From contig JAKPPS010000032.1 in assembly GCA_029547225.1 (NCBI GenBank), forward strand, positions 4,065 through 68,064: DNA of 64,000 nucleotides, given 5' to 3'. This DNA is from a bacterium (GTDB taxonomy: Bacteria > Patescibacteriota > Dojkabacteria > SC72 > WJKH01). Position 1 is the first letter of the stretch; each line of letters starts with the position of its first letter. A program made the translations under genes and the position numbers. Of the stretch, positions 17,895-64,000 are shown piece by piece. The notes beneath the pieces are model-generated. The model saw only the letters and a list, made by a program, of their open reading frames with translations, had not been told where the DNA came from and did no database searches.

Positions 17895-18995
17895 ATGGAA
17901 GTAAAAACAATTAAAGTCGATAATTTAGAATTATTAAAGGACAAAATTGCACAAGAACTTGTACAACAACCTGTCACCGACAAATATATGTGTTGGCGGT
18001 ATAAGAATTCACAGATAAGTGTAGTAGCTTATACTTCAGGCAAAGTTGTATTTAGCGGAAATGGTGATATTAATAAATATTTATTACATTGGGGTGTACT
18101 AAACTCCTCTGACATTGAAGATGTACGAACCGAGGACAGTGAAAAGAATTTGCACAGTAATTCTAAAAGTGCCGACGGTTTAAAAATAACTGACAACAAG
18201 GGAAAATTCGATAACACTATCTCGTATAGGGATGGGGCTTTTGTCGATATTGGTTCAGATGAGGCGGGTAAGGGAGAGTACTGGGGGCCTTTATGTGTCA
18301 GCGCAGTATATCTTGAAAATGGGAATATCGCTCAGATAAATAAACTAAAAGAATTGGGCGTAAAGGATTCAAAAAAACTTAGTGATATACAGGTAATCAA
18401 GTTAGCAAGCCAGATAAAGAAAGTGGTTAAGTATGAACTGATAGTTTTGGCATTAAGAGATTTCAATAAAGAGATGGAACTTAAGAAAAATATATCGATA
18501 ATAATGGGGGATTTACATGCTAAAGCGATAAATAACATCATAGCCGAATTAAATGAAGCTAGTGTACAGAAATCTAAAAGCAAGTCTTGTAAATATGAAG
18601 AATTAGACATTGTTGTAGATAAATTCTCTTCGGTATCAAATAGGATTGACGGGAAGCTGATTCCATATACCCCCGGGGGTATATCCAGCACCAAAGTAAA
18701 AGGTGATGCTTCTCATAGTAAAGTGAATCTTCATCAGATAGAGAAGGGGGAACAGTATTTGGCTGTCGCTTGTGCATCAATTATTGCACGACAGGCATAT
18801 CTTGAAAATATCGAAAAGCTTTCAAAGAAATACGATTTTATCTTCCCAAAAGGGTACACGAACATCGAGAAAACTATCATCGATTTTGTAGAATTACATG
18901 GAGAAGATGCTTTATATGATGTTGCTAAGGTCTCCTTTAAGACTACAAAAAGGGCTTTACCAAACTTTCGATACAATATGATAGAACAGAAATAG
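17895..18995 (+). CDS. rnhC: Ribonuclease HIII
   Basis: It has the N-terminal RNase HIII-specific domain ('YTSGKVVFSGNG'), the catalytic motif 'GSDEAGKGEYWGPLCVSAV' and 'VACASIIAR'. Confidence 0.8.
   Translation: MEVKTIKVDNLELLKDKIAQELVQQPVTDKYMCWRYKNSQISVVAYTSGKVVFSGNGDINKYLLHWGVLNSSDIEDVRTEDSEKNLHSNSKSADGLKITDNKGKFDNTISYRDGAFVDIGSDEAGKGEYWGPLCVSAVYLENGNIAQINKLKELGVKDSKKLSDIQVIKLASQIKKVVKYELIVLALRDFNKEMELKKNISIIMGDLHAKAINNIIAELNEASVQKSKSKSCKYEELDIVVDKFSSVSNRIDGKLIPYTPGGISSTKVKGDASHSKVNLHQIEKGEQYLAVACASIIARQAYLENIEKLSKKYDFIFPKGYTNIEKTIIDFVELHGEDALYDVAKVSFKTTKRALPNFRYNMIEQK
18665..18684. repeat. 20-bp palindrome ATATACCCCCGGGGGTATAT (site 1, inside rnhC)
   Basis: It is a perfect 20-nt palindrome in the ATATAC-N8-GTATAT format. 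It is read in frame as Y-T-P-G-G-I-S. Confidence 0.9.
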
Positions 18996-19035
18996 TGTAA
19001 TTTCTGTCATAATCAGGAAACCAGCAATAGAAACC

Positions 19036-20040
19036 TTAATCGACTCTTTTTGAGCGATTCATTTTGCGAGTGAAAATATTTACCAGAGAGATTAAAGTAA
19101 TAAACGATACTAGTGCTGTTAATACAATTAAAGTTAGTTTGAGAGGGTGATTGATAGATATCTCCTTTTCTATAAAATATATATCACCTTCATTTACTAT
19201 CTCTGCTAAGATTTTTACTGGAGAGAAAAGACTTTTGAAATCCCAAACGTTTGATTCAAATTCCCATGAAATTGTGTCATTGCTTGCGACAGTGCTGTTA
19301 TTTTCATTGATAAGAAAAGTGAAAGGTCCGCTTTCTTGATCATCTACTATTCCGAGTCTCTTTAAAGAATAAATATCTACACTCCCTAATGGAGTGAGCT
19401 CGTAAGGAGTATTGTTTGTGAAATCGATCTGAATTTTCATAGGTTTATTTATCCAGCCATAATCTAATACTTTAATATCTAATTTTGTACTTTCATAGGA
19501 ATCACTAGTTCCGAGTACATTTGAAGACTCGTCCAATAAATTAAGTTTTATTACTGATCCGATACCCCCTTCGACATTTATTAGTTCGTTATTTGTAAAA
19601 TCTTTATTTATTATCGCTATGACATTGTAATAAGTACCGATTTGCATTGACTCATCTGTGAGGACAGCATAGGGGATTGATATTGATTCTTTCGGATTAA
19701 GCGTAAATTGACTTTTCTCAGTTTTGATAAATATTGTTTGATCAGCTCTGTTACTGTTTGTGAGGTATTCAGTGTTATCACCGCTGATTATTTCGTTGTT
19801 AGAATTAAGAATCTTCACAGTGAATTCATGTGGATAGTCATCTGTATTGGTAAAATTGATATTTGCAAACTTATTTTCACCTTTTTTGAGATCATATTCA
19901 ACAGTTGATGGTTCGATAGAATATGCGTATGTATTTGTCTGCAAAGTGCCAAATAGTATAGCGGTAAAAGCGACAATCAAAAGGAATAGTGACCCTTTTG
20001 ATAATATTTGCATCAGGCGATTTCTAAAATAAAAATACAT
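19036..20040 (-). CDS. Cell-surface protein with an N-terminal signal/TM and a C-terminal TM anchor (architecture resembles DUF916/DUF3324 proteins)
   Basis: N-terminal hydrophobic segment 'LFLLIVAFTAILFGTL'. C-terminal 'LTLIVLTALVSFITLISLVNIF' is followed by 'TRKMNRSKRVD'. The family assignment rests on architecture only. Confidence 0.55.
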   Translation of the reverse strand: MYFYFRNRLMQILSKGSLFLLIVAFTAILFGTLQTNTYAYSIEPSTVEYDLKKGENKFANINFTNTDDYPHEFTVKILNSNNEIISGDNTEYLTNSNRADQTIFIKTEKSQFTLNPKESISIPYAVLTDESMQIGTYYNVIAIINKDFTNNELINVEGGIGSVIKLNLLDESSNVLGTSDSYESTKLDIKVLDYGWINKPMKIQIDFTNNTPYELTPLGSVDIYSLKRLGIVDDQESGPFTFLINENNSTVASNDTISWEFESNVWDFKSLFSPVKILAEIVNEGDIYFIEKEISINHPLKLTLIVLTALVSFITLISLVNIFTRKMNRSKRVD

Positions 20041-20060
20041 ATTAACTTTACTAAAAAATA

Positions 20061-21407
20061 TTATCTTATAGGATCAGAAGACGGAGCTCCTGAATTAATT
20101 ATTCCAGAAGCTTTTGTAGTCATGACAAAATATACTTCTTCAGTAAAAACACCTGCAGGATTAGCTGATCTTACCTTGCCTTTAACTTTCAAAGCACACT
20201 TACCTGTATAAATTGGACCTTCCGAATAATAAGTGTTCGTCGTTGTCGGATCTTTGCTTATTATCCCAACGTTATCTGTACCACCAAGATATGTACTTGT
20301 ATAGTTTGCAACTGGAGATATTGTTGATAGTTCACCACCATTACCAGTATCGTACTGCTGTGATGAAGTATAGTGCTGTAGCCCAAATCCATCTGTAGAG
20401 GTTGCAAGATCTGCTGTTTTTGATTCAACTGATAAGGTTGTTCCGTCACTTAATCCACCATATTTCCCGAAGTTGCTGATTCTAAAACCAGTTTGGTAAT
20501 TTGTTCCGACATTAAGCCAGATAAGATTATTTGCCTCTTGAATAAAATCTGGAGGTAACACAATGGAAAGATTATGCGGAGGATTGGAGCTTGGTGCTCC
20601 TGAAGTATCTGCAATGTCAATATTCATTTCGAGATAAGGATTTGTTGTTGCTACAGAAGCGTAAGGACCAGGTTCCGATTCAGTAAGGTTACCATGCAAT
20701 GCAGTAGCTCTAATGTAATAAGTTGTACTAGGTGAAATACCTCTTATATTTAAAGTTGTAGCCTCCCATGTTGCTTCTGTTTGATAATCTGCAATTGATT
20801 TTGTACTACTTGCTTTTGGTGCAAATGTAGTACCATCGATAATGCGATATGTCGCGAAAGAGCTATCTGTACTTATCTGTATCGAGTATAGTGTATCGCT
20901 TGGGTTTCCCTGTGGGTCAATTTCAAATCTTGCTCTGTTGTAACATCCGTGAGGTCCACAAACTGTTATCATCCCATCTGATGCTACATATGTAGGTGCA
21001 GTACAACTTGATGAACCAACAGTATCTGTTTCAAAACAGGCAATTTTAGGGACATTGGCGATAAATGCAGGGATTGTTCCATCTTGAGCTTTGTAACTTG
21101 CAGATGTTAGTAGGGTTTCAGCAATCATATCATCGATATTACTTGTTGAAATAAAATTTGATGTAGCAGATGTAGCTTCATCTACCGAACCATAATTTTG
21201 TTTGATTGTCATTTGAAAATTCGGAGAAACTAGTTCTTCGGCATTTACAGGTTTGCTTATAAGGGAGTTATATACCCCAGTGGGTATATCTTGACCTTTA
21301 CTAAAAGAAAATAACTGAGTAACCAACAGATATGTTGATAAGGTGAATAATAGTGATAACAATAATAATTTGAATACCTCAGAATTCATAACCTGTATCT
21401 TTTGCAT
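20061..21407 (-). CDS. Secreted protein with a fibronectin type III-like domain
   Basis: Signal-like N-terminus 'FKLLLLSLLFTLSTYLLV'. The segment 'YSIQISTDSSFATYRIIDGT...STTYYIRATALHGNLTESEPGP' reads like an FN3 domain. The C-terminal strand 'PAGVFTEEVYFVMT' resembles pilin or WxL-type terminal strands. Confidence 0.55.
   Translation of the reverse strand: MQKIQVMNSEVFKLLLLSLLFTLSTYLLVTQLFSFSKGQDIPTGVYNSLISKPVNAEELVSPNFQMTIKQNYGSVDEATSATSNFISTSNIDDMIAETLLTSASYKAQDGTIPAFIANVPKIACFETDTVGSSSCTAPTYVASDGMITVCGPHGCYNRARFEIDPQGNPSDTLYSIQISTDSSFATYRIIDGTTFAPKASSTKSIADYQTEATWEATTLNIRGISPSTTYYIRATALHGNLTESEPGPYASVATTNPYLEMNIDIADTSGAPSSNPPHNLSIVLPPDFIQEANNLIWLNVGTNYQTGFRISNFGKYGGLSDGTTLSVESKTADLATSTDGFGLQHYTSSQQYDTGNGGELSTISPVANYTSTYLGGTDNVGIISKDPTTTNTYYSEGPIYTGKCALKVKGKVRSANPAGVFTEEVYFVMTTKASGIINSGAPSSDPIR
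21270..21289. repeat. 20-bp palindrome ATATACCCCAGTGGGTATAT (site 2, inside the 448-aa surface protein gene)
   Basis: It has the ATATAC-N8-GTATAT format with 8-bp perfect arms ATATACCC/GGGTATAT. It encodes D-I-P-T-G-V-Y on the minus strand. Confidence 0.85.
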
Positions 21408-21684
21408 TTTTGGAGGCAGAATAGATCAAATAAATTATAACTAAATATATCATATATCAGTATAGATTAGTACTTTAATTAATAATTTTTATGATAAGAA
21501 TTATTTTAAGATAGGTGGTTTCTTTGATATCTATTAAACTTTATGCTAAAATTACCTCTAGCACTTAAAATATTAGTTGTGAATATCAGGCTCACAGATT
21601 TCTATTTTAACGAGATTTGAGTCAAAGTATTTACTTCTTGAAAACATTGAGTATTGCTCTTTCTTTGTAGAAAAATTGTATTTT

Positions 21685-21773
21685 GGAGAGGTGTCAGAGT
21701 GGTCGAATGAGACGGTCTTGAAAACCGTTAAGGGGGGCAACCTCCTTCGCAGGTTCAAATCCTGTCCTCTCCG
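21685..21773 (+). tRNA. tRNA-Ser (anticodon UGA)
   Basis: Acceptor GGAGAGG/CCTCTCC, anticodon arm ACGGT-CTTGAAA-ACCGT (anticodon TGA), a long variable arm and T-arm GCAGGTTCAAATCCTGT. CCA is not encoded. Confidence 0.9.
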
Positions 21774-21987
21774 TATCACCATAATATCGATTTATTTGAG
21801 AAGTAGTGGAAGGTATTCCAGAATCGCTCGCTGGGTATCAAAAAAAAGGTGCGTGTTAAGTACAGATGTGAGTCTTCACGAAGTGAAGTGTTCTCGAGAT
21901 TCCCAAAGAATGAGATGTAAAACATCGAAATGATTTGTAGGTATCGAATTGGCAGTCCTTAAAAAATTTTTTGTGTTCTGCCTGGTT

Positions 21988-22001
21988 CCTGTCCTCTCCG
22001 T
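21988..22001 (+). repeat. Direct repeat of the tRNA-Ser 3' end (CCTGTCCTCTCCGT)
   Basis: It is a 14-nt exact copy of 21761..21774 and is preceded by GGTTC, which also matches the T-arm. It lies 214 nt downstream of the tRNA. Confidence 0.8.
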
Positions 22002-22030
22002 GTTTCTCAATAATTTTATCTTAACAAAAT

Positions 22031-22495: not shown

Positions 22496-22617
22496 AAAAA
22501 TCAGTGTCGGATTAATTGCTAATTCCCAAACTAAAAGAATTCTCGTGGAGTTTTCGAAACGAAGCTTATTATTATCGTATCTATTAGTTGAATCTCGGTG
22601 AATTTTGAAACTAATTA

Positions 22618-24945: not shown

Positions 24946-25127
24946 ATTCTTGGATGTTTATAGAGGTAAATGAAAATTGCTTGTGAACAGATCTACAAAA
25001 TATCTATCAGTTATTGGTGTAAATAAAGGCAGGTTTTTATCTATTCAATATTAGCATATCACTTGTTATGAAATGATTCAAATGATATATTGATATAGAT
25101 AAAATAATATTTATTTTTAAAGGCGAA

Positions 25128-27607: not shown

Positions 27608-28468
27608 ATGGATAATAAGTCGATAAAAGGGAAGATACATTCGATTGAATCTTTTTCTACAATAGATGGCCCTGGTATTAGGTCGGTACTTTTTATGTCT
27701 GGCTGTTTTTTGAAATGTCCATTTTGTCACAATATTGATGTTGTACTTAATCCGGCTAATCAAGTAAGCGAGCCTGCAGAAATATTGCAGTATCTTAAAA
27801 AGTTTTCAGATTATTGGGGTGATGATGGAGGTATCACCTTAAGTGGGGGAGATCCTTTAGTTCAGATTGAGTTTACGCAGGAGATTACAAAGTTAGCTAT
27901 AGGTGAGGGGATTAATGTCACTATCGATACGGCTTTGATAAGTGATGAGTCTAGCTTCCGATATCTAATGGATGCTTTATATACCCCTGGGGGTATATCG
28001 GACAGTACATTACGGGGGTTAGAATCTGATATTCCTGCCAATCGTGGAAAAATATTTTGGATGTCTTCTTTTAAACCACATATCTTTGCAAAAGACACTC
28101 CAGGTTATAATTTAGATAATTTTCTTGCTAATCTAAGGGCGCTTATTGATCGAATAAGGTTATCAGAGAGGGTAAGTTTGAGGATAAGGTATGTTGTTAT
28201 AAAGGGTTTTACAGATAATCTTGAGGCATGTAATGAATTGGTTGAACTTCTTTCTCAAATCGATGTGCCGTTTGAATTAGAACTTCTGCCGTATGTTAGT
28301 TGGGGTGAGAAAAAATGGGCCGATCAGGGTTTGGAGTATTTGCTTAAGGGTTTAAGTAGTACAAACCATGAGGAATTAATGCAATTTCGTAATATGGTGG
28401 AGCAACAGGTGAAAGATAGAAACCTATCAAATGTTACTAAGATAATGCCACTAATACAGAATAAATAG
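27608..28468 (+). CDS. pflA: Pyruvate formate-lyase activating enzyme (radical SAM)
   Basis: It has 'IESFSTIDGPGIRSVLFMSGCFLKCPFCHN' (CX3CX2C). I prefer the ATG at 27608 over the tracked TTG at 27554. It carries an insertion of about 20 to 40 aa relative to my memory of E. coli PflA. Confidence 0.88.
   Translation: MDNKSIKGKIHSIESFSTIDGPGIRSVLFMSGCFLKCPFCHNIDVVLNPANQVSEPAEILQYLKKFSDYWGDDGGITLSGGDPLVQIEFTQEITKLAIGEGINVTIDTALISDESSFRYLMDALYTPGGISDSTLRGLESDIPANRGKIFWMSSFKPHIFAKDTPGYNLDNFLANLRALIDRIRLSERVSLRIRYVVIKGFTDNLEACNELVELLSQIDVPFELELLPYVSWGEKKWADQGLEYLLKGLSSTNHEELMQFRNMVEQQVKDRNLSNVTKIMPLIQNK
27979..27998. repeat. 20-bp palindrome ATATACCCCTGGGGGTATAT (site 3, inside pflA)
   Basis: It has the ATATAC-N8-GTATAT format with one central mismatch. 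It is read in frame as Y-T-P-G-G-I-S, the same heptapeptide as site 1. Confidence 0.9.
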
Positions 28469-36728: not shown

Positions 36729-36852
36729 TTTTGAAAGATAATCTGGCTTTTGGCCTTACGACAGTTTTGAAGAAACCATATCTAATTATTGATCGAGGGA
36801 GATATAGAGGAAAATAGATTAGTAAATATTTTATTTTTTATTAGTGCGAAAA

Positions 36853-39153: not shown

Positions 39154-39326
39154 AGATTGAAAATTTCTAAGTATTAGACAACTAGGTAATTTGACAATCT
39201 GAATAAATAGATCGAAATTGATGATTGTAGTTTGCGAAAACCACAGGGAAAATAATAATAAAAATACGAAATGTCTGAAAAGCTCGGATAAATATTATAT
39301 TAATTAATATGTTAAATTTTTTTAGA

Positions 39327-40930: not shown

Positions 40931-43105
40931 CTAGTTTTCAGATTTTGTTTCAAGTTTCTTGCTAGTGTCCTTTTCTATATCTTTTCCTGTATTATCGTTA
41001 GAAGTAGTATTTGCCATTAATCTCTTCTTATTGTACTTTCTTATTTGTGATGCAATCAGTGTGATAATAACGATAAAGATTACCAGGGTAACACAAACTG
41101 GAAGTACCACAATAGCAGTTTTACCAAGAGGATTAGTTTTTATCATAAAATCAAGTTTGTCTTGCTCCTGTATTATTTGCAAATCAGAAATAGTTGCAAT
41201 TTGATCAACTGTTTTTAAAGAACCAATTTCCGAAAATTGACTTGCAGGCACGGGATATATAATTATGTGGTAATTATCATAAGCGTTTTCGGCAGTAATA
41301 TTTGCAGAATAAACCATCGCATCAATTGGAGAAGTACTAATACTACTTGATGTATACCAAAGCACATGTTCAAGATCTGGTCCGATATATATTCTTTTTG
41401 TTTCTCCCCATGTCGGATCTACAGTCATCCACCCATAATCTGGAAACCAAACTTGTACCCATTGATGACCCTTACTTTTTTGATTTAGGTCTTCATTATT
41501 ACTCTCAACGGTCTTATTTTCATCACTCTCGTTTGAATTAGTGTTGTTCGTTGTGTCAGAGAGTGTAGCTTCATTTTTTTGTAGAAATTCGGTTTTACTA
41601 ACATCTGTTTGCTGTGTTGAATTGTATACTTCGTTATCAAGAAGGGGATCGTTGCCATACCCAAAAGCAGGTCGTGCAGGTATGCCTTGAGCTCTAAGTA
41701 AGGTGATAAGGCTATCTGAATACTCCATACAGACTGTAGCTTCACCTTCAAGTGCTCGTAAGGCTCCAATGCGTTGATTGAATTGTGAAACCTTATCATA
41801 ACTATAATCAAATTCTTCAACTAAATAATTATAATCAGATATCAATATGTCGTAGATTTTCTCTTTATCCGCCTTCAGAGAATTGGCTAATTGAATAATT
41901 TCTGGATCGGTTGTTTGCCAATATGTATCGGATTCCAAAAACTTAGATAATGTTTGGTTGGATCTGATATCACTTGCAAGATCAGTTAATGTGACCTCAG
42001 TAGTGCTTTTAGTCTCTTGAGTATCTGAAGCTTCTTCGTTTGTACTTGTGGCTTCTTCCTGAATATCCTTATGAATGCTTTGTTTTACATAACCTTCTAT
42101 TGTTATTGTGCTCTCTTTGTTAGCGGGTACCTCCCAGCGTCCGATCAAGTTCCCTTCATCATCATGATATAAAAGTTTGGGCTCGGGAGAAATAGATTTA
42201 ATATATATTTCTTGATTGGTTTCCTCAAATTCTCTTGGAAGAATAATCTCGTAAACATTTGTTGAGAGTAATGGTGAAATATTGCTAATAGATTCAGGTA
42301 TTAAATTATCAGATATTGGTGCTTTTTGTTCTATCTTAAAGTAGGTGTATTGTTCCGTACCAATCTGAACCCAACCCATATTATTCTTAATTGTCTGGTG
42401 ATCAAGAGTGTAAATTCGATGGCCATTTTCAGTGTTTATCTGGATTGAGCTTGGAGAATAATATGAGTGCATTGACTCATTTTCAGGTACTAAAATCTTT
42501 TGAGTATAATTATAGTTTGTTTTGAGACCATTTCCATCAGTTTTACTATCTTCAAGTGTCGGCATTTGTGGGGTATAAATATTGCTTATATTTCCATTAA
42601 TATCTATGAACTGGTGAGATTTGTATCGGATTTCTGCTTCAAAGGGATTATAATTATCAATATTGTAATCCTGTGGAATTAATACTTTTATACCCTGTGG
42701 GGTATTCTCAACTTGATAGGAATTATTTATTTGACCATTAACATACACTTGTAACGAATCCCTGGAAAATGCCATTTCTGAATCGAATAATTCATTCTGA
42801 TATTCAGATGAGATCGGAGTGATATACATTTCTTGCATATACCCAGCAGGGTATAAGTATAATGATGTATTAACTTGTAAGCGGAGTCTTTCCTTTACTT
42901 CAACGTAATCTTGGTTTGGTTGATAATAAATTTCTAGGATGTGGTTGGTCTCGAAATCTGGATCGGAAGCATGAGTATTGGTATTTAGTAGTGCTATATC
43001 TGCAAAGAAAAGTGTTATTATCATTAAAATCGCGAACACTTTTTGTATAAAAGGGGAAATTGTTTTTAAAAGTGCGTTAGTGTTCAGAAATAGATTTTGT
43101 AGCAT
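40931..43105 (-). CDS. Large transglutaminase-like envelope protein with N- and C-terminal TM segments
   Basis: It has the transglutaminase core Cys 'ATVCMEYSDSLITLLRAQGIPAR', His 'KGHQWVQVWF' and Asp 'MTVDPTW'. The C-terminal TM is 'AIVVLPVCVTLVIFIVIITLIA'. Confidence 0.75.
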   Translation of the reverse strand: MLQNLFLNTNALLKTISPFIQKVFAILMIITLFFADIALLNTNTHASDPDFETNHILEIYYQPNQDYVEVKERLRLQVNTSLYLYPAGYMQEMYITPISSEYQNELFDSEMAFSRDSLQVYVNGQINNSYQVENTPQGIKVLIPQDYNIDNYNPFEAEIRYKSHQFIDINGNISNIYTPQMPTLEDSKTDGNGLKTNYNYTQKILVPENESMHSYYSPSSIQINTENGHRIYTLDHQTIKNNMGWVQIGTEQYTYFKIEQKAPISDNLIPESISNISPLLSTNVYEIILPREFEETNQEIYIKSISPEPKLLYHDDEGNLIGRWEVPANKESTITIEGYVKQSIHKDIQEEATSTNEEASDTQETKSTTEVTLTDLASDIRSNQTLSKFLESDTYWQTTDPEIIQLANSLKADKEKIYDILISDYNYLVEEFDYSYDKVSQFNQRIGALRALEGEATVCMEYSDSLITLLRAQGIPARPAFGYGNDPLLDNEVYNSTQQTDVSKTEFLQKNEATLSDTTNNTNSNESDENKTVESNNEDLNQKSKGHQWVQVWFPDYGWMTVDPTWGETKRIYIGPDLEHVLWYTSSSISTSPIDAMVYSANITAENAYDNYHIIIYPVPASQFSEIGSLKTVDQIATISDLQIIQEQDKLDFMIKTNPLGKTAIVVLPVCVTLVIFIVIITLIASQIRKYNKKRLMANTTSNDNTGKDIEKDTSKKLETKSEN
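42688..42707. repeat. Near-consensus 20-bp palindrome TTATACCCTGTGGGGTATTC (site 4)
   Basis: It has the 20-nt frame TTATAC-N8-GTATTC with a CCC..GGGG core. It encodes N-T-P-Q-G-I-K on the minus strand. Confidence 0.55.
42837..42856. repeat. Near-consensus 20-bp palindrome ATATACCCAGCAGGGTATAA (site 5)
   Basis: It has the frame ATATAC-N8-GTATAA with 7-bp perfect arms TATACCC/GGGTATA. It encodes Y-L-Y-P-A-G-Y-M on the minus strand. Confidence 0.65.
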
Positions 43106-51279: not shown

Positions 51280-52397
51280 TGCTCCATGCAATAATCTTCG
51301 AAATATATGCCTTTAATGTTGAATTGCCTCTCTTTTGATAATCCCATTATTGCAGATAAGAGATTGTCTGAATTTCCTACCAAAGCTAATTTGGGCTCAT
51401 GATCTTTTACACTAGGGTCTAGTTTTAAATATACCTCAGGGGGTATATATGGCGGATTTGATATTATAAACACACTACTTTTATCAAATACGCTCTGGGG
51501 TATATTTTTGAGCCAATTACTATTTATAAATTGAACATCTTTACTATTTAGAATCGCTTTTTTGTCGTCCAATATAGGATTCTTTTTTATTGTTTGATAG
51601 TTGTTAGTAGCAATAGATAAAGCTTCTTGAGAAATATCCGTTCCTATAAAGTCAAATAACGCAAACCATTTACTTACTAAATTACGCTTACGGAGATCAT
51701 TGATGAAACCATCTATTTTATTTCTGTTTTTCTTAAAGTATTCATGCAATTCGAAAATATCTCTTTCAGTGATAAGCCTAGTGTTTGTTTTAAAACATAT
51801 ATGTGGTATTTCAAGCTGTTCCGTATATATTCGATCAGAAATATTCTTGATGTTTATTGAACCAGAAATAATACCACTTAAAATCATGTAAACCGAAGTG
51901 ATTATACAACCTGAACCAGTACCGATATCTATTATTGTAATTGTATTAATTGATGATTTATCGGAATCAAGTTTATCTAACAGGTCATTATTATTAAAAA
52001 CATATTCTGAAAAGAAATATTGTAATATCGATAGGGTAGAGTAGTACACTAAGAATTCCGTATCGGTCCTTGGTATAAGAACATTTTTATCAACCTGAAA
52101 AATATACCCACAAAATTCTGCCGAACCTTTGAAATATTCCCAAGGCATATTGTTCTTGAGCTTCTCAATTATCACATCTATCTGAGAAGAAATAAGTGAT
52201 TTAAGGTTTTCGATACTTTTCTTTGCAGGCTTCTTTTTGTTTGGATTAATAAAATTCTCATTACAGGGATTAGCGGAGATTTCGTTAATTACATATTGCA
52301 GTATCTCGTTTGAAATGCGTAAACTATCAGGGTGATTGATATTCTGGAGTTTTCTTTGCAATTGGGGTAGCAAATCGATAAATTCGCTTGGTATCAT
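51276..52397 (-). CDS. prmC: Release-factor glutamine N5-methyltransferase (with a large internal insertion)
   Basis: It has the SAM motif 'IIDIGTGSGCI' and the catalytic motif 'IISNPPYIP'. It lies immediately downstream of prfA on the same strand. Confidence 0.8.
   Translation of the reverse strand: MIPSEFIDLLPQLQRKLQNINHPDSLRISNEILQYVINEISANPCNENFINPNKKKPAKKSIENLKSLISSQIDVIIEKLKNNMPWEYFKGSAEFCGYIFQVDKNVLIPRTDTEFLVYYSTLSILQYFFSEYVFNNNDLLDKLDSDKSSINTITIIDIGTGSGCIITSVYMILSGIISGSINIKNISDRIYTEQLEIPHICFKTNTRLITERDIFELHEYFKKNRNKIDGFINDLRKRNLVSKWFALFDFIGTDISQEALSIATNNYQTIKKNPILDDKKAILNSKDVQFINSNWLKNIPQSVFDKSSVFIISNPPYIPPEVYLKLDPSVKDHEPKLALVGNSDNLLSAIMGLSKERQFNIKGIYFEDYCMEH
51429..51448. repeat. 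20-bp palindrome ATATACCTCAGGGGGTATAT (site 6, inside prmC)
   Basis: It has the ATATAC-N8-GTATAT format and overlaps the codons for P-Y-I-P-P-E-V-Y, directly at the NPPY motif. Confidence 0.8.
51486..51505. repeat. Near-consensus site AAATACGCTCTGGGGTATAT (site 7, inside prmC)
   Basis: It has the frame AAATAC-N8-GTATAT, centred 57 bp from site 6. It encodes N-I-P-Q-S-V-F on the minus strand. Confidence 0.5.
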
Positions 52398-53838: not shown

Positions 53839-54308
53839 GCTCGGCTATTATAGCAGAGCTATATCTAACATGCAAGTGCTTATTTTGTGATATTTAAGGA
53901 TTTGGGATTAATAAAAGTTTTGAAGAGTTTAGGAGAGTCTTGAAAGGCTTTTATGGTTTTTTATGAGTTTTGAAAAAGATTTTTTTGTTGAAATGAAAAC
54001 TATGATTATACTTGTAGTTTATTTCCATAAGTATGCGCGGGCATTAATGGTGCATAAGGGGGGAGTGAATCAGCGAGTGGAGAGTAAGCAAAAACATAAT
54101 GGTAACGTAGTAATCGTAAAGCAATATTGAGGTTGTTGTTGTAACGGAACATGGGATATAATAATTGCTGATTTGATGATAGATTTACTGAGTGAGGTTA
54201 TTATAAAAAATCGAGCGAATATTTAACCGTAATCTTCCGGTCTTTAGTGTTTAGTGTACAGATAGTAAATTCTGAGTTAAAAATAGGATTATAGGTTCGA
54301 ATCATGTG

Positions 54309-54338
54309 TTGACATATACCCCTAGGGGTATATATAAT
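54309..54338 (+). promoter_or_regulatory. Promoter with an embedded perfect 20-bp palindromic operator
   Basis: TTGACA (54309..54314), then ATATACCCCTAGGGGTATAT (54314..54333, a perfect palindrome), then TATAAT (54333..54338), giving an 18-nt spacer. It lies 32 nt upstream of the CsoR-like ATG. Confidence 0.7.
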
Positions 54339-54369
54339 GTATTAAGATAATATAAATATTAAACAGTAT

Positions 54370-54597
54370 ATGGCGAAAAAAGGACCTGCTTCAATATCAG
54401 ATCGATTAAATAGAGTAGAGGGACAGATTAGGGGTATTGAAAAATTAATTGCAGAAGGTGAATCTACAGAAAAAATATTACCTCAGTTACAAGCGATTAT
54501 TTCTGGTATAGAAAATGTTAAGCTCGAAATGATTAAAGAACAAATGAAAAAACAGCTTCTATCTGAATTAGATAAAGTTGTTGATCTATTAAAGTAG
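54370..54597 (+). CDS. CsoR/RcnR/FrmR-family (DUF156) DNA-binding protein lacking all Cys and His
   Basis: 'SDRLNRVEGQIRGIEKLIAEGESTEKILPQLQAIISGIENVKLEMI' aligns by eye to the family core 'RL.RIEGQ.RGI...C.DIL.Q..A...A...V.L.LL..H...C'. The 75-aa sequence contains no C or H. Confidence 0.75.
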   Translation: MAKKGPASISDRLNRVEGQIRGIEKLIAEGESTEKILPQLQAIISGIENVKLEMIKEQMKKQLLSELDKVVDLLK

Positions 54598-54693: not shown

Positions 54694-55818
54694 TTGAATC
54701 GTAACGATAAATCAATTTCCAATGATATCGAATCTACAATTTCTTCTTTATTTATGGGGATTTTCCGAGGTAGTCGAATTGTATTTAATCGCTCTGTTTG
54801 GTTGAATCGCCATAGAGGGAGTTTAGTAATTCCTTCTATTTTATTCATTGCTATTTTTATTGCTATTGTAATATTTGTATTTCAACTATCCTGTATTTTT
54901 TCTTCGGGTTATTGTCAAAATTTATATCATGCTATTTATGATTTAAATAACGATGTCGATGGAAAAACTATCGCGGATGATGTCTTTAATCAAAATACAG
55001 CTAATCTTCAGATCGAGGATTCTGATGAAGTTGATAAAGGTACTGAAAAACGAAGTGGTATTAATAAGGTTAGTGAAGTAGTCGAAAACTGCGGTTTAAA
55101 CATTAGTAATAATGAATCTAAACAGATAGTGGAATGCTTCAATAATTACTTTAACTCAAATATGTATTCAGATGCTTTTTTGTGTATAGAAAGCGCAAAT
55201 ATATATGCAGACATTAATTACGGAGATGAATTTGATATCGATAAGGGCATGGTAATTAGACAGAATGGTGCTAATTGGGATGATGAAAATAATATTGTTA
55301 TTACGGGTCATAGGATTAATTTATCTCAACCAAATCATAAAACTCTACTTAATTTGGATGATGTTGAATCTGGAGATAAGATTCTTGTTTTACGTACACT
55401 TCCAAAGGAAAAGCTGGAAGAAACTGCCTTTGAAAACCAAAAAGTCACTGAAAAAAAATCTGCTAATGAATCTTATGATAATATCCACAATGACGAGGTC
55501 CTAAACATTAACAATACAATAGTTTGTAATGCTGAAGATTTTATTTCACATAGAAATATTAATAATAACGATGACTTAAGTAGCGATGGTAAACAAGCAT
55601 TTATCATTTATGAGTACAGTGTAAATATTATAGATGAGGTACTTCCTCAGGAAGTTCAGATAGAAAGTATAATCAGTCCATATTTATATACTAGTGGGGG
55701 TATATATAATGAAAGAAAGTCTACAATTACAATTTATACTTGTACACCCTTGTGGGTATTTAATCGAAGACTGGTTGTATTTGGTATCTTAGAGAATAAA
55801 TATCATTTGTTGCTCTGA
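54694..55818 (+). CDS. Sortase-family transpeptidase-like protein with an N-terminal TM and a large insertion
   Basis: It has a TM 'LVIPSILFIAIFIAIVIFVF', 'NIVITGHRIN...LLNLDDVESGDKILV', the catalytic Cys context 'ITIYTCTP' and Arg 'NRRLVVFG'. TTG start. Confidence 0.65.
   Translation: MNRNDKSISNDIESTISSLFMGIFRGSRIVFNRSVWLNRHRGSLVIPSILFIAIFIAIVIFVFQLSCIFSSGYCQNLYHAIYDLNNDVDGKTIADDVFNQNTANLQIEDSDEVDKGTEKRSGINKVSEVVENCGLNISNNESKQIVECFNNYFNSNMYSDAFLCIESANIYADINYGDEFDIDKGMVIRQNGANWDDENNIVITGHRINLSQPNHKTLLNLDDVESGDKILVLRTLPKEKLEETAFENQKVTEKKSANESYDNIHNDEVLNINNTIVCNAEDFISHRNINNNDDLSSDGKQAFIIYEYSVNIIDEVLPQEVQIESIISPYLYTSGGIYNERKSTITIYTCTPLWVFNRRLVVFGILENKYHLLL
55686..55705. repeat. 20-bp site ATATACTAGTGGGGGTATAT (site 9, inside the sortase-like gene)
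   Basis: It has the ATATAC-N8-GTATAT format, with the left C-tract replaced. The right side GGGGTATATATAATG is a 15-nt identity with the promoter copy at 54325..54339. Confidence 0.75.
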
Positions 55819-58269: not shown

Positions 58270-58482
58270 TGGACAATCAAGTAAAGAATTTTCTACCATT
58301 TTCCCAAGAGAATATTTTTCAAAATATTTTGTATTTTTTACTACTCTCAGCTTGTGACTGTATTTGGTCTCTTATGGTAATAAAATCTATAAAATTTGGA
58401 GGAAATTGGCGAGAAAAATCTCTAAATATCTATTGTTTTATCAAGTAAAAAGGTGTAATATTATCAACAATTGTGAGAGCTT

Positions 58483-58566
58483 GCAGAAGTGGTGGAATTG
58501 GCATACACGCGGGACTCAAAATCCCGTCCTCGCAAGAGGATGAGGGTTCAACTCCCTCCTTCTGCA
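58483..58566 (+). tRNA. tRNA-Leu (anticodon CAA)
   Basis: Acceptor GCAGAAG/CTTCTGC, anticodon loop CTCAAAA (anticodon CAA), a long variable arm and T-arm GAGGGTTCAACTCCCTC. Confidence 0.88.
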
Positions 58567-58615
58567 TTTGCTTTTGTGTATTCCACAAAAATAAATAAAT
58601 TTAAGTTCAGTCAAA

Positions 58616-60288: not shown

Positions 60289-60299
60289 TCTCTACAATT

Positions 60300-60716: not shown

Positions 60717-60764
60717 TGATATGTGATATGTAAGTTTGTAGTTATGAATTTTTAATCAACGATT

Positions 60765-62081
60765 ATGAAAAGCATCGAAGAAAGTAATAAAAATCTTGAA
60801 TCTGAAAATAATGATACTGCTGTAGAAAGTCCAAATGTAGTGGTTGGAAAACGATTAGATTTAACGGTATTTGAATATATACAGAATCTTGGGCATCAAA
60901 TGCGGTCTAAAAGTGATGATGAAATATACTTGAGCAAAGATCCAAATATCACAATTAATGTAATTAATACTGGGGTAGATATACAATTAGATAACTTAGA
61001 AAAAGTTAGCCGAAGTCTGATTTCAAATAACATTAACAGTATCGTACTGGTCAATAATCTTAAAGAAAAACGAGGTTATAAATTAAGGAAAAATGATGTA
61101 GTAACAATTGATCTGTCGGGTCTTAACAAAATACTGGATCAATCAATAAAAAATAAAAATCTAAATAGTGGGATATTTACAGTTGTCTCAAGAAAAGGTG
61201 ATCTTGATATAGTCTTTGAAGACAAGAACCTACTTGTAATCAACAAAAAAGCTGGTGTGTCGGTACATCCTGGAATCTCAAATCTCGATAATACTTTAGC
61301 CAATTATGTCCGATATTATCTTGAGGATAAATCAGAATTTGATAATCAGGTTGTAAATGGAGGTATCGTCCATCGACTAGATAAATGTACGAGTGGCTTA
61401 ATAATTTATGCAAAAAATCATGAAACACAGATCGCATTGAAACAAATGTTTAAGAGAAGAAAAATAGTAAAGGGGTATATTGCACAAATAGAAGAAAACA
61501 TCTTGAATATAGGCCCCATATACCTAGGGGGGTATATAAAACGTGATAAGGTTGACCGTAGAAGGATGAAGTATTTCCCTTTGACAATTCAGAATCTTGA
61601 AACAGAAAGCAAAGTAGATATATTGAGAGATATTGAATATGTTCCCGTTAATCAGGCGTTTATTAACTCACAATCTGCAGAAATACTTCCTTTATCTGAG
61701 GACAAATCTAATACACGAATGACTCAATATGGCAATGTGAGTATAGATGGGCCAGATGTTCAACAAGTTAACAAGAATGATTTTAAGAGTACCTACAGCC
61801 CTCGAGATATAAAAGATATTGGTAATACATTAAAACTTTGCGAAACACTTATTGAACCAATATCAGGAAATAGATTGTTGGTCTATCCAATTACTGGCAG
61901 AAACCATCAAATAAGGGCTGTCTTACGCGAAATTGGCTATTATATTTTCGGAGACACATTGTATAAGTCCAAAAGGGAAGGGGATATACCAGAAGAAATT
62001 GGTCTGAAGTGTGTCTATCTTCGAGTTGAAGAATATGGTGATGGTTTGGAGATTTCCCTGCCAGACTATAAGACACTCTGA
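60765..62081 (+). CDS. rluD: RluA/RluD-family pseudouridine synthase (with insertions)
   Basis: It has 'LLVINKKAGVSVHPG' and the catalytic motif 'HRLDKCTSGLIIYAKN', with 'RNHQIRAVL' near the C-terminus. Confidence 0.8.
   Translation: MKSIEESNKNLESENNDTAVESPNVVVGKRLDLTVFEYIQNLGHQMRSKSDDEIYLSKDPNITINVINTGVDIQLDNLEKVSRSLISNNINSIVLVNNLKEKRGYKLRKNDVVTIDLSGLNKILDQSIKNKNLNSGIFTVVSRKGDLDIVFEDKNLLVINKKAGVSVHPGISNLDNTLANYVRYYLEDKSEFDNQVVNGGIVHRLDKCTSGLIIYAKNHETQIALKQMFKRRKIVKGYIAQIEENILNIGPIYLGGYIKRDKVDRRRMKYFPLTIQNLETESKVDILRDIEYVPVNQAFINSQSAEILPLSEDKSNTRMTQYGNVSIDGPDVQQVNKNDFKSTYSPRDIKDIGNTLKLCETLIEPISGNRLLVYPITGRNHQIRAVLREIGYYIFGDTLYKSKREGDIPEEIGLKCVYLRVEEYGDGLEISLPDYKTL
61518..61537. repeat. 20-bp site ATATACCTAGGGGGGTATAT (site 11, inside rluD)
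   Basis: It has the ATATAC-N8-GTATAT format and encodes P-I-Y-L-G-G-Y-I-K. Confidence 0.8.
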
Positions 62082-62636
62082 TAGTTTTCTCAGTAATATG
62101 TTTATCGGTGCAGTACGGATATTCGTTCCATGGGTATGCTTGATATACCAATACATATGTACGCGGGTAAGAATTGTACCCAGAAGCGAGTAAAATTAAC
62201 AGATTATATTCTCAATATTTGTGAAATTTTCTTTGGTGAAGGTCTGCACATACAAAGGTTACTATTTAAACAAAAGAAGGTAACAAAATAGTAACACCGA
62301 CCCTTGTACTTTATCTGGCATAGTTAACTGAATCAAATTGCATAACACACTTATGGGGTATGGTACTTGCCTTGAATTTTCTATATTCTTCACCTTATTA
62401 TTTTGTGAAAAATTTATTGAATTTAACGAATCTGCTTTACTTTTATCCGTATTTTATCTATCGTATTAATAGAACTACTGCCAAAAAAGTATGATTACGT
62501 TTTAGGTTTTTTTATCTAATTACTAAAATACTATTCTATATATTTTCTTATATTTGCAGTGTTTCTGTGTATTATAATATTATGCTTTTATTGCTAATTA
62601 ATACTGATAGTCAGTTTATTTTGTTTTTCGTTTGAA

Positions 62637-64000
62637 ATGCAGCAAATCGAGCTATTAAATCAAAACAGAAAGAGTATGTTAAGTGAGCCAAAGTATAATA
62701 TTCTTTCGTTGTTTAAATCAAATGAAAAGGATAGGACTCGTTCGACTGAAATACGTCATGATAAGTATTCGTCACATGTATTAGATATTAAGAGAGATAT
62801 TATTAATTCAAATACAAGTGAAGCGAAGAGAAATTTTAAGAATAAAAATTTCCGTCGGCATGGTTTGGCAGAGGACAGTATTAAGTATAAGAATGAAAAA
62901 TACTCTTCTTCTCGGTCAAGAGCTTCTGTTGGCTCTTGTAATGCAGAAAGTAAAAAAGATCGTGGAGGAAATAGTGTACTTGGAAAATTGTTTACTGTTC
63001 TTACAAAGATAGTAATTGCTCTGATTGTACTTGCTATCCCAGCATATTATATTTATGTTGGATTTACTCTTTCGGTGATAAATATCGAGGATCCTTTATC
63101 GAATACAGGGACTCTAGTTGCGAGAGATGATGATTTATTTAGGCAAATAATAATAATGACTGATGAAGAAGATACTGAGGTCGTGGGTGTGTATATCTTC
63201 ATTTCAAATCAAGTCTCGGGTGATTCGCTAGTATATTATATACCCCCGTGGGTATATAGTGATGACTACAGTAACACTTTTGAGCAACCTGTTTCTGTGG
63301 GGAACTTGCTTTATATGGCTTCAACGGTTGATCCGGAAAAGAAATATCAATTTGTGATAAATCAAATATCAAGTGTAGTGGGTATGATCTTTGACTCATA
63401 TATATATCTACCAACCGATAAAGCTTCTGAAATCTCTGATCAATGTAAATATGATAGTAGTAAGGGTGCGGAGTATATCGATAAATGTATATCCGGTCTT
63501 ACAAATCCTTTTAATGTACTTGAGAGTCATAAGTTGGACGAACTAATACGATCTCTTCGCTCAAATCTTACTTATAAGCAGATTATGCAGTTAAGAAACC
63601 GTATTGGTGCGATTGATTTTGGAACTGATGGTAATGGTATTATTTCTAATTACAACGGAAATATTATTGATCTTTCAAGTAATAATTATGTAATAGAGAA
63701 TACTGCTCCTGGTGATCAAAACATTATAGTGAGTAAACTTGTAGTTGAATCTATAGACAGTATTATCTCTGAAAACATTGATATTGTACGCTCCAAAAAT
63801 ATCCAAAAAGAGCTTGTTAAAGTAGAAGTTTACAATGGTAGTGGTATACCTAAGTATGCAAGTAAATATTCGAGATATATTAGTAATATGGGGTGTACTG
63901 TAGTGCGTTTTGGCAATGCAGATAAAGAATATGAGCAGACTACAATATATGTTGTTGATCCCGAAAGATTTCAGTATTCCTTGAGTGTGGTTAAAGCTAT
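62637..64000 (+). CDS. Membrane protein with a LytR_C-type C-terminal domain (LCP-like; 3' end outside window)
   Basis: This ORF is not in the supplied track because it runs off the window. ATG at 62637, TM 'LFTVLTKIVIALIVLAIPAYYIYVGF', and 'VKVEVYNGSGIPKYASKYSRYISNMGCTVVRFGNADKEYEQTTIYV' resembles the LytR C-terminal domain. Confidence 0.6.
   Translation, partial: MQQIELLNQNRKSMLSEPKYNILSLFKSNEKDRTRSTEIRHDKYSSHVLDIKRDIINSNTSEAKRNFKNKNFRRHGLAEDSIKYKNEKYSSSRSRASVGSCNAESKKDRGGNSVLGKLFTVLTKIVIALIVLAIPAYYIYVGFTLSVINIEDPLSNTGTLVARDDDLFRQIIIMTDEEDTEVVGVYIFISNQVSGDSLVYYIPPWVYSDDYSNTFEQPVSVGNLLYMASTVDPEKKYQFVINQISSVVGMIFDSYIYLPTDKASEISDQCKYDSSKGAEYIDKCISGLTNPFNVLESHKLDELIRSLRSNLTYKQIMQLRNRIGAIDFGTDGNGIISNYNGNIIDLSSNNYVIENTAPGDQNIIVSKLVVESIDSIISENIDIVRSKNIQKELVKVEVYNGSGIPKYASKYSRYISNMGCTVVRFGNADKEYEQTTIYVVDPERFQYSLSVVKA
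63238..63257. repeat. 20-bp palindrome ATATACCCCCGTGGGTATAT (site 12, inside the LCP-like gene)
   Basis: It has the ATATAC-N8-GTATAT format with 8-bp arms ATATACCC/GGGTATAT. It encodes Y-I-P-P-W-V-Y. Confidence 0.85.

Follow-up and report, generated by a model that had tools for sequence, protein, structure and literature searches.

CsoR-family operators of type 2 have been defined in streptomycetes, where the consensus is ATATACCCCTNAGGGGTATAT and binding requires the TAC/GTA dyads (PMC3902906), and in S. mitis, where the cst operator reads ATATACCCTTATGGGGTATAT (PMC8643695). Across the published CsoR/CstR operators, the dyads are essential for binding and the G-tracts are variable (PMC3902906, PMC8643695). 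Judged by its sequence, the 20-bp palindrome ATATAC-N8-GTATAT that recurs in a 64,000-nt window (the whole stretch of DNA analyzed here) of an uncultured Dojkabacteria (CPR) bacterium is an operator of this published type, with TAC/GTA dyads around a C-tract and a G-tract. The exact 20-mer is present in many phyla, where it adjoins PF02583, rhodanese, CoA-disulfide-reductase-type and Cu-ATPase genes; 50 of 117 8-kb loci holding it contain a PF02583 ORF, and the genes adjoining it in these loci are chiefly PF02583 (23), rhodanese (14) and Pyr_redox_2 (10). An earlier sequence-only reading of the window had suggested the CsoR-family operator type from the shape of the motif, and this assignment agrees both with the published operators (PMC3902906, PMC8643695) and with the PF02583 neighbors in other phyla.

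The window contains 8 exact sites, starting at 18665, 21270, 27979, 51429, 54314, 55686, 61518 and 63238, all at the positions first reported for them. The 3 near copies described in the same 20-nt frame were also recovered, those at 42837 and 51486 having one mismatch each to ATATAC-N8-GTATAT and that at 42688 retaining ATAC-N8-GTAT. Enrichment above chance, previously a rough estimate, was confirmed: the motif was absent from 100 dinucleotide-preserving shuffles, as compared with 8 sites in the real window. In the codon-shuffle control proposed by the sequence-only reading, 47 protein sequences were held constant through 1000 synonymous-codon shuffles, which gave a mean of 1.45 exact sites (1 being the unshuffled intergenic site) and a maximum of 5 against the 8 observed; 7 intragenic exact sites were thus found where ~0.45 were expected. 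The constant length also held, with enrichment at the N8 spacing only: of the spacings n = 4 to 13, n = 8 accounts for 15 instances of ATAC-Nn-GTAT and each of the others for 0–3. A GC-rich core is present in 11 of these 15, which are exactly the 8 exact and 3 near sites, and an inverted-repeat scan with 6-nt arms and spacings of 0–12 returned ATATAC as the sole recurring arm. Since the site is sequence-specific and of fixed length, it is better regarded as protein-recognized than as a loose hairpin, as had been argued. All 11 sites lie within 44.6 kb; the count refers to the approximately 82 kb of the genome that was inspected. The density is ~0.13–0.17 sites per kb and regionally patchy, with zero sites in flanking stretches of 28 kb and 9 kb, and regional clustering is weakly supported (p about 0.01–0.06).

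As originally noted, only one of the 11 copies is intergenic. This copy, ATATACCCCTAGGGGTATAT (54314..54333), is a putative autoregulatory operator and fills the spacer of the sigma-70-type promoter of the csoR-like gene (TTGACA-18-TATAAT, 54309..54338, + strand), the sole 12/12 consensus match in the 51–64 kb region. The operator is identical in all strains compared. In relatives, an equivalent ATAC-N8-GTAT separates the -35 and -10 elements that precede the csoR-like gene, an arrangement kept where the protein is 45–60% identical; over-extended database ORFs translate the operator (IYPRGYI, IPPGVYI).

The downstream gene (54370..54597, + strand) encodes a 75-aa protein whose proposed CsoR-like identity was supported by Pfam (PF02583, E = 2.8e-14). 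Its AlphaFold2 model has a pLDDT of 91, the top 19 matches in a PDB fold comparison are CsoR, CstR, InrS or FrmR, and the DNA-contact residues (RLxR and the invariant Gln39) are kept. At sensor positions X/Y/Z, the protein has Thr33/Gln58/Gln62 in place of the family Cys/His/Cys, residues found at positions 33, 58 and 62 in 99 (Cys), 67 (His) and 78 (Cys) of the top 150 relatives, and there is no Cys or His in its entire sequence. The absence of Cys/His at W-X-Y-Z (T33/Q58/Q62) makes the described Cu, Ni/Co, formaldehyde and persulfide sensing chemistries impossible. Cys is missing altogether from 41 of the top 150 relatives, and the protein belongs to a Cys-free clade of roughly 75-aa proteins, in which no characterized member was found; of six members followed up, five (all except P0007) come from Dojkabacteria records or syntenic contigs.

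The intragenic copies occupy all three codon phases, their flanks have no common sequence, and their positions relative to gene starts and ends show no consistent pattern suggesting one regulatory logic. Their reported translations are correct, Y-T-P/S-G-G-I, I-P-x-x-V-Y and I-Y-L-G-G-Y-I corresponding to codon phases 3, 2 and 1, respectively. The host names stood in part: RNase HIII, a PflA-type radical SAM protein, sortase, transglutaminase and RluD were identified by Pfam; prmC has the NPPY motif and a position beside prfA but no Pfam support; the "LCP-like" gene has a LytR_C domain, but its LCP identity was not borne out; and the supposed surface-protein gene (20061-21407) has no family match.

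The exact copy in rnhC (18665..18684; + gene, phase 3, Y-T-P-G-G-I) sits at one end of a 13-aa insertion specific to the Dojkabacteria RNase HIII, and that in pflA (27979..27998; + gene, phase 3, Y-T-P-G-G-I) starts at the conserved Y-T of PflA and extends into a clade-specific insertion. The 3' end of the sortase-like gene holds an exact copy (55686..55705) that falls within an insertion absent from the sortase of L257, a more distant relative; this copy is enclosed by a promoter-like element (TTTATA-16-TATAAT, 55683-55710), the second-best promoter match in the 51–64 kb region, 310 bp upstream of a Lactamase_B_3 gene. The exact copy in prmC (51429..51448; - strand, phase 2, Y-I-P-P-E-V-Y) directly follows the NPPY motif and has arms conserved in sister strains; because the L257 orthologue reads Y-I-P-T-D-T-Y, this site was made by substitutions. 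A near copy in the same gene, AAATACGCTCTGGGGTATAT (51486..51505, one mismatch), 57 bp from the first, is unchanged in a sister strain while 10 of 60 flanking bases differ. At the rluD copy (61518..61537; + gene, phase 1, I-Y-L-G-G-Y-I), a sister strain shows 15 differences in 60 flanking bases, 2 in the core and 0 in the arms, and the L257 orthologue reads I-K-V-E-G-Y-I. Arms are likewise kept, with one core change, in the sister-strain counterparts of the copy in the gene with the LytR_C domain (63238..63257; + gene, phase 2, I-P-P-W-V-Y) and of the copy ~120 bp inside a 448-aa gene without family match (21270..21289; - strand, phase 2, I-P-T-G-V-Y; sister strain L345). The transglutaminase-like gene (- strand) carries two near copies, TTATACCCTGTGGGGTATTC (42688..42707, ATAC-N8-GTAT, phase 3) and ATATACCCAGCAGGGTATAA (42837..42856, one mismatch, phase 1).

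Ortholog alignment, another check suggested at the outset, gave a divided answer: in prmC and rluD, point substitutions in codons existing in the L257 orthologue created the copies, and the rnhC, pflA and sortase copies lie within or at the edge of low-constraint, lineage-specific insert segments. The syntenic 20 kb of L257 (protein 60% identical) yielded only the promoter operator and two weak matches; hence the sites in prmC, rluD and the sortase gene are lineage-specific. In sister strains, substitutions were found at 0/96 arm, 6/64 core and 48/480 flank positions (arms vs flanks, Fisher p = 1.6e-4), a pattern that mirrors the biochemistry, in which the dyads are critical and the tract tolerant. 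In a species with ~69% nucleotide identity, the rnhC site is an identical 20-mer at the orthologous position (L344:7329) and the pflA site is conserved with perfect arms (L347:6656); the two together show 0/24 substitutions in the arms and 68/120 in the flanks (p = 3e-8). Other CPR MAGs (three Dojkabacteria and one Peregrinibacteria) contain perfect 20-mers inside SufB, transglutaminase and F420-ligase-like genes and a perfect-arm copy inside an MnmA gene (L189:5443). Pure amino-acid constraint as the cause of the intragenic copies was rejected. By the evidence of these comparisons, the intragenic copies are kept by selection at the DNA level.

We consider it probable that the intragenic copies serve the sensor-less CsoR-like protein as further binding sites, which would make it an autoregulated, multi-site chromosomal DNA-binding protein. 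The protein most likely represses its own promoter (54314) constitutively, and this self-repression is proposed to hold the concentration of free protein steady. The copy at 55686 probably controls an internal promoter of the downstream MBL-fold gene. The other nine, inside housekeeping genes, would have come about in coding DNA through substitutions, in many cases in low-constraint inserts, and been maintained there by DNA-level selection as additional high-affinity sites of the same protein, presumably with two tetramers per site as in characterized CsoRs; binding at these sites may contribute to local architecture, act as transcription roadblocks or provide titration sites. Retention of the motif at ten unrelated housekeeping-gene positions suggests that this small repressor binds many chromosomal sites and not one operon. 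If so, the CsoR-like protein is a multi-site chromosomal binder rather than a one-operon stress sensor. Among the four explanations offered by the sequence-only reading, the first, in which the sites serve the local CsoR-like protein as a regulon, as nucleoid sites or as roadblocks, agrees best with the data, although we infer the binding of the intragenic sites by the 75-aa protein, and the effect of binding, from the identity of the motif with the operator in its own promoter. That reading had overlooked the loss of the three sensor residues, the promoter-like surroundings of the 55686 copy and the cross-species conservation of two intragenic sites.

The intragenic palindromes might instead be the targets of a different factor and so constitute an inducible regulon or a set of roadblocks. 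This factor could be an additional, sensor-competent CsoR/CstR paralogue whose gene lies in another part of the genome, or a palindrome-binding protein of another kind. Other bacteria carry both CsoR and CstR paralogues, whose operators closely resemble each other (PMC8643695), and the ~82 kb inspected belongs to a roughly 1-Mb genome. However, CPR genomes are small, the only PF02583 gene seen has the same motif in its own promoter, and throughout the sensor-less clade the operator stays paired with this promoter. We regard a different factor as unlikely.

A genome signature unrelated to transcription factors, i.e. an uptake signal, a methylation or repair target, or a mutational bias of the HIP1, USS or DUS kind, seems distinctly improbable. 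Like USS and HIP1, the sites are found in coding DNA, in three phases, and are conserved between species, and CPR bacteria are thought to depend on imported DNA; but their low and patchy density (11 sites in 82 kb) speaks against such a signature, as do the perfect palindrome with a tolerant center, a form typical of sites for dimeric or tetrameric proteins, and the identity of the motif with a CsoR-family operator that is found in many phyla and in the csoR-like promoter here. The window contains no methyltransferase, R-M or competence genes. A restriction-modification target found no support, the site being enriched rather than avoided, and neither did the uptake-signal explanation.

That the sites work as hairpins in RNA or single-stranded DNA, for instance to signal mRNA pausing, stability or processing, is very improbable. 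Most copies can form a hairpin with a stem of 8 bp and a loop of 4 nt (-6.5 to -9.4 kcal/mol), and the transcript is the same from either strand because the motif is palindromic. On the other hand, the stem is always ATATACC(C), with no other complementary stems and no compensatory changes, the copies at 55686 (-3.8 kcal/mol) and 51486 (-2.7 kcal/mol) fold weakly, and the promoter copy at 54314, lying between the -35 and -10 elements, is untranscribed. In-frame insertion of a minute palindromic mobile element, comparable to a Rickettsia palindromic element or MITE, is scarcely credible and largely refuted, for although the rnhC, pflA and sortase sites are at the edge of lineage-specific insertions, the sequence common to the copies ends with the 20-mer, a unit of 20 nt does not keep the frame, not being a multiple of 3, prmC and rluD acquired their sites by substitutions in codons present in the orthologue, the inserts vary in length and sequence, and many motif-free inserts of like kind occur in this organism's proteins.

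Rickettsia palindromic elements resemble the Dojkabacteria motif as palindromic DNA within ORFs that are left undestroyed. They are, however, insertions of 100–150 bp with family-wide sequence similarity, whereas here only the 20-mer is common and point substitution accounts for at least some of the copies. HIP1 of cyanobacteria and USS/DUS of Pasteurellaceae and Neisseria are also short motifs over-represented in genes, in all frames, and conserved between relatives; they occur about once per kb or more over the whole genome, and USS and DUS are not palindromes, whereas the present motif is patchy in distribution, has a 10-fold lower density and is identical in sequence to a known repressor operator. 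The ParB-parS, Noc-NBS, SlmA-SBS and MatP-matS systems have short palindromes in tens of copies, mostly in coding regions, sometimes regionally clustered and under DNA-level selection, with a binder that is autoregulated or constitutive. The Dojkabacteria sites are similarly short, palindromic, mostly intragenic and selected at the DNA level, but nothing in the present data ties them to segregation or division, and their binder would have the CsoR fold, not that of ParB, TetR or MatP. The 75-aa protein shares with the CsoR/RcnR/FrmR/CstR/InrS family (PF02583) the Pfam match, the helical-bundle fold, RLxR and the conserved DNA-contact Gln, as well as small size and, as predicted from the promoter sequence, negative autoregulation; it differs in having no Cys or His at W-X-Y-Z. 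The type-2 CsoR/CstR operators (Streptomyces lividans csoR and copZA; staphylococcal and streptococcal cst) belong to the same sequence class as the present motif, i.e. an AT-rich arm ending in TAC, a C-tract, a short variable center, a G-tract, GTA and an AT-rich arm, with critical dyads and a tolerant center, and in both cases the regulator gene carries one copy across its own promoter. Unlike those systems, the presumed binder here lacks any inducer-sensing residue; the spacing is strictly TAC-N8-GTA, as compared with N9 in the S. lividans operator; and whereas known type-2 CsoR/CstR regulons have 1–4 promoter-proximal operators, 9 of the 11 copies here are intragenic.

All eight exact copies of ATATAC-N8-GTATAT that had been read directly from the sequence were confirmed, at 18665 (rnhC), 21270 (a gene for a 448-aa protein), 27979 (pflA), 51429 (prmC), 54314 (intergenic), 55686 (a sortase gene), 61518 (rluD) and 63238 (a LytR_C gene), and no site appeared in 100 dinucleotide shuffles. 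Two of the three near copies reported with them, 42837 (transglutaminase-like gene) and 51486 (prmC), were recovered at one mismatch, and the third (42688, also in the transglutaminase-like gene) retains ATAC-N8-GTAT. The fixed length also holds, as ATAC-Nn-GTAT occurs 15 times with n = 8 (11 with a GC-rich core) and 0–3 times with each other n from 4 to 13. No enrichment of other spacings or other palindromes was found, and among 6-nt arms only ATATAC recurs as an inverted repeat at any of the spacings 0–12. The half-site is A-T-A-T-A-C-C-C-c (counts out of 22: A19, T20, A22, T22, A22, C22, C20, C19 and C14); flank alignment and a logo extended by ±8 nt showed no similarity beyond the 20-mer, the information stopping at its ends.

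The sequence-only reading had staked the motif on its exceeding codon-shuffled controls, and it does so: shuffling synonymous codons in 47 genes, with proteins and codon usage kept, gave a mean of 0.45 and a maximum of 4 intragenic sites, against 7 observed (mean 1.45 and maximum 5 when the fixed intergenic site is included). Since the sites are spread over all three codon phases, in host genes on both strands (reading Y-T-P/S-G-G-I, I-P-x-x-V-Y or I-Y-L-G-G-Y-I), a shared peptide is ruled out as the explanation. Chance and amino-acid constraint are excluded by the dinucleotide shuffles, the synonymous-codon shuffles and the three-phase use. The finding is genuine and its statistics are robust. 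In mfd (1970–1985), and in three other assemblies (L339–L341), a perfect 16-bp palindrome, ATACTTGTACAAGTAT, has the same ATAC-N8-GTAT frame; its core is AT-rich, and it may be due to chance or weakly related to the motif.

The motif has the TAC/GTA inverted dyads, internal C-/G-tracts and AT-rich outer arms of type-2 CsoR/CstR operators. The streptomycete type-2 consensus is ATATACCCCTNAGGGGTATAT; exchange of any base of its TAC/GTA dyads abolishes binding, its variable G-tracts are thought to give deformability, and two CsoR tetramers occupy each site (PMC3902906). In S. mitis, CstR, which senses persulfide, binds the cst operator ATATACCCTTATGGGGTATAT (PMC8643695). When one genome per species was scanned for ATATACCCCNNGGGGTATAT (18 specified bases), at least 117 loci matched (L136–L252). 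The matches listed are mostly from high-GC Actinomycetota, usually with 1–2 copies per locus, and are mostly canonical operators; as the host genomes are high-GC, this AT-armed 20-mer is not there by chance. Among the matches listed, a PF02583 ORF is present in 50 of the 117 8-kb loci with the exact 20-mer, and the ORFs starting beside the 20-mer include PF02583 (23), rhodanese (14), Pyr_redox_2 (10), thioredoxin (7) and Lactamase_B (6) genes, together with E1-E2 ATPase/HMA genes. These neighbours are cst- and cop-type regulons. With the published consensus they establish the operator identity, and bear out the CsoR-family operator type named in the sequence-only reading. Single-sequence phmmer/jackhmmer searches plus a P-type ATPase motif found a match in 34 of the 117 loci listed, the Pfam scan of adjacent ORFs being clearer. 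In Actinomycetota and other phyla the 20-mer marks cst-like loci (rhodanese, CoA-disulfide reductase type, MBL-fold, thioredoxin) and cop-like loci, often in tandem pairs 23–44 bp apart, and would serve well as a probe for CstR/CsoR regulons. A viral-contig scan with 14 specified bases gave mostly single matches among those listed.

The candidate binder is the 75-aa protein encoded at 54370–54597 (+ strand), which matches the PF02583 profile with E = 2.8e-14 (53.7 bits; cut-off 22.8) and whose sequence matches in the PDB are CsoR, CstR, InrS and FrmR. Its AlphaFold2 model (pLDDT 91.4) predicts a CsoR-type helical bundle; the top 19 Foldseek matches of the model in the PDB are all CsoR, CstR, InrS or FrmR, many superposing at about 1 A rmsd over 49–56 aligned residues (range 0.7–9.9 A). 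The DNA-contact residues are kept, namely R12-L13-N14-R15 (RLxR, helix 1) and Gln39 (helix 2), the latter invariant in all 150 nearest cluster representatives; S. lividans CsoR needs RLxR and the conserved Gln to bind DNA (PMC3902906). The W-X-Y-Z inducer residues are absent: T33, Q58 and Q62 take the places of the C, H and C found in 99, 67 and 78 of the 150 nearest relatives, respectively, and the protein contains no Cys and no His. The missing ligands argue against the described inducer-release mechanisms for this protein, as judged from its sequence. It belongs to a Cys-free clade of about 75 aa that makes up 41 of the top 150 representatives. Protein and neighbourhood recur across ENA, JGI and NCBI in many assemblies, GCA_035351115.1 among them, one record naming the protein 'metal-sensing transcriptional repressor [Candidatus Dojkabacteria bacterium]'; a metagenome search with the protein alignment did not have the source species among its matches. 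The source itself is an uncultured Candidatus Dojkabacteria (CPR/Patescibacteria) population of anaerobic digesters.

The copy at 54314 overlaps the csoR-like promoter, occupying the 18-nt spacer of TTGACA-N18-TATAAT, the sole perfect (12/12) promoter match in 51–64 kb. Overlap is plausible at 55686, which lies inside the second-best match of that region (TTTATA-16-TATAAT, 10/12), upstream of a conserved downstream Lactamase_B_3 gene; the other nine copies are within coding sequence. Relatives with a 45–60% identical protein retain ATAC-N8-GTAT upstream of the csoR-like gene, between the -35 and -10 elements (loci L011–L013 and L167) or 55–88 bp upstream of the start (L257 and L260/L261). Since the operator is kept at these promoters, negative autoregulation through it appears to be conserved across the sensor-less clade. 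Three database entries for relatives of the csoR-like gene (P0008, P0018 and P0030) are over-long ORFs whose spurious N-termini translate the operator (IYPRGYI, IPPGVYI and IPPWVYT), by sequence an annotation artefact that documents operator conservation. About 530 bp between rpmE and the csoR-like gene (53839–54369) are non-coding, although some assemblies call a 55-aa ORF there. Relatives carry a divergent GNAT acetyltransferase gene in place of this spacer, and no remnant of it was detectable in 53.8–54.3 kb. Rfam gave no match in the leader or at the sites, finding only two tRNAs: tRNA-Leu(caa) (58482–58567) and tRNA-Ser(tga) (21684–21774), the latter divergent from the gene with the 21270 site and exposing the mechanical ORF at 21676–21933 as spurious.

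The intragenic copies are under purifying selection at the DNA level. In sister strains about 97% identical overall, the arms of eight sites carry 0 substitutions in 96 positions, compared with 6 in 64 in the core and 48 in 480 in the flanks (Fisher p = 1.6e-4 for arms vs flanks and 0.0035 for arms vs core). At 61518 the flanks have diverged by about 25% and two core bases have changed in a sister strain, with both arms intact. Fixed dyads around a free centre are the pattern that published binding studies of CsoR operators describe. The ±30 nt around the sites show about 10% divergence between sister strains, three times the 3.2% mean of the aligned 20 kb, so the sites tend to lie where genes evolve fast. 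Another Dojkabacteria species that is clearly distinct (sample ERR14964769; proteins 61–63% and genes 68–69% nt identity) has ATATACCCCCGGGGGTATAT at the orthologous position in rnhC and again in pflA, with 0 of 24 differences in the arms and 68 of 120 in the ±30-nt flanks (p = 3e-8). Synonymous positions are kept at both sites, and in rnhC the preceding codon still ends in A though the amino acid differs (Pro vs Ser).

The leading interpretation of the sequence-only reading, that these are sites for the local CsoR-like protein, stands up to the tests made. The intragenic copies are probably extra binding sites of the 75-aa protein, given its retained DNA-contact residues and the operator at its own promoter. 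We regard binding by some different factor as unlikely.

Less likely still is a genome signature, uptake signal or methylation target. HIP1 and USS/DUS occur about once per kb genome-wide, whereas this motif has 11 sites in the 81.6 kb examined, with stretches of 28 kb and 9 kb empty; extending the contig by 9.5 kb before and 8 kb beyond the window added no site. A restriction-modification target lacks support in the window, where the site is enriched rather than avoided and no R-M or methylase genes are present. All 11 sites lie within 44.6 kb, and their clustering around the csoR-like gene is only suggestive (p = 0.013 with the 11 sites taken as independent, 0.037 with 9 clusters and 0.061 with the 8 exact sites). 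The window contains neither a DnaA-box cluster nor a GC-skew switch. Its genes are housekeeping only (ybeY, pth, mfd, dnaX, ybaB, recR, mur ligases, cysS, rnhC, pfl/pflA, cca, RNase J, ychF, rpsF-ssb-rpsR, prfA/prmC, dnaB and rluD). An IF-2B-family (ribose-1,5-bisphosphate isomerase-like) gene whose product is extended N-terminally by about 430 aa (36844–39153) and a following gene with nucleoside/AMP-phosphorylase-type domains (39309–40838) look like genes of the CPR nucleoside-salvage (RuBisCO) pathway reported from Dojkabacteria (PMC5113843).

A hairpin function is very improbable: an 8-bp stem could form at most sites, yet its sequence is invariant and the copy in the promoter is untranscribed.

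As to how the sites arose, that in prmC follows the catalytic NPPY and reads Y-I-P-P-E-V-Y, compared with Y-I-P-T-D-T-Y in a distant orthologue; in rluD a conserved G-Y-I gives one arm, and I-K has changed to I-Y. Those in rnhC, pflA and the sortase gene are at the edges of lineage-specific insert segments that have no sequence in common. The prmC and rluD substitutions and the unrelated inserts indicate that sites were written by substitution where protein constraint permitted, rather than delivered by an element. A mobile element, including the tiny palindromic element raised in the sequence-only reading, is hardly credible, since the flanks are dissimilar, the prmC and rluD sites arose by substitution and the shared unit longer than the core that marks RPEs and MITEs is absent.

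Several copies stand at the edges of large insertions in housekeeping proteins: RNase HIII (17895–18995) has a lineage-specific insertion of 13 aa and PflA (27608–28468) one of about 45 aa, while the sortase (54694–55818) has 374 aa vs 129–150 aa in relatives, PrmC (51276–52397) 373 vs 296 aa and RluD (60765–62081) 438 vs 328 aa. With three close relatives from Dojkabacteria set aside, the best remaining homologues of RNase HIII are only about 33% identical; the few with a source name are from Bacilli, Chlamydiales and one Verrucomicrobia, and the gene may be an old horizontal acquisition.

In L257, a distant relative with a 60% identical protein, the syntenic 20 kb yielded no more than two weak matches besides the promoter operator, which makes the prmC, rluD and sortase sites young and the rnhC and pflA sites old. 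Perfect 20-mers in SufB and transglutaminase genes, and a copy with perfect arms (ATATACCCTGGAGGGTATAT, L189:5443) in MnmA, occur in three other Dojkabacteria MAGs, and a Peregrinibacteria MAG has a perfect 20-mer inside an F420-ligase-like gene; the habit is therefore not unique to the window species.

We propose that the 75-aa protein would bind all copies and, having no inducer site, would do so constitutively. Its own operator would act as a set-point controller, with total protein scaling with the number of chromosomal sites, a design typical of architectural proteins. Intragenic occupancy might serve as RNA polymerase roadblocks, in bridging or looping between sites (the pairs 42688/42837 and 51429/51486 being candidates) or in titration. 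More tentatively, and as a possibility we hold with considerable doubt, the Cys-free clade of Dojkabacteria, and perhaps of other CPR, could be a nucleoid-associated or chromosome-organising protein and no longer a stress sensor, held at constant level by its promoter operator and occupying conserved operator palindromes in housekeeping genes, regionally clustered around its own gene.

CsoR-family proteins are textbook one-operon sensors of metals, formaldehyde or persulfide; in CPR bacteria, transcription factors are very scarce and genetics is lacking. Motif class and protein family were known before; what is new is to find a sensor-less clade combined with intragenic operators conserved across species in a CPR bacterium, and no earlier description was found in the literature on CsoR intragenic or ChIP-seq sites, sensor-less CsoR clades or Dojkabacteria. 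If true, a sensor-less clade with selected operators in unrelated essential genes would mean that the fold has been re-used as a constitutive multi-site DNA-binding protein. The conserved, searchable 20-bp site set offers a concrete handle on DNA organisation and regulation in reduced CPR genomes, and Y-T-P-G-G-I and I-P-x-x-V-Y are a clear instance of protein sequence being shaped by selection on the DNA. It is also a warning to those regulon prediction pipelines that throw intragenic matches away.

Among known systems, the parS, NBS, SBS and matS sets share with this one many palindromic, mainly intragenic sites conserved at the DNA level, 10 of the 11 here being in coding sequence. They differ in their binders: the window has no ParB, TetR (SlmA) or MatP gene, and the candidate binder is CsoR-fold. 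As a nucleoid organiser, the 75-aa protein would be a CsoR-fold analogue, in logic, of ParB-parS, Noc-NBS or SlmA-SBS.
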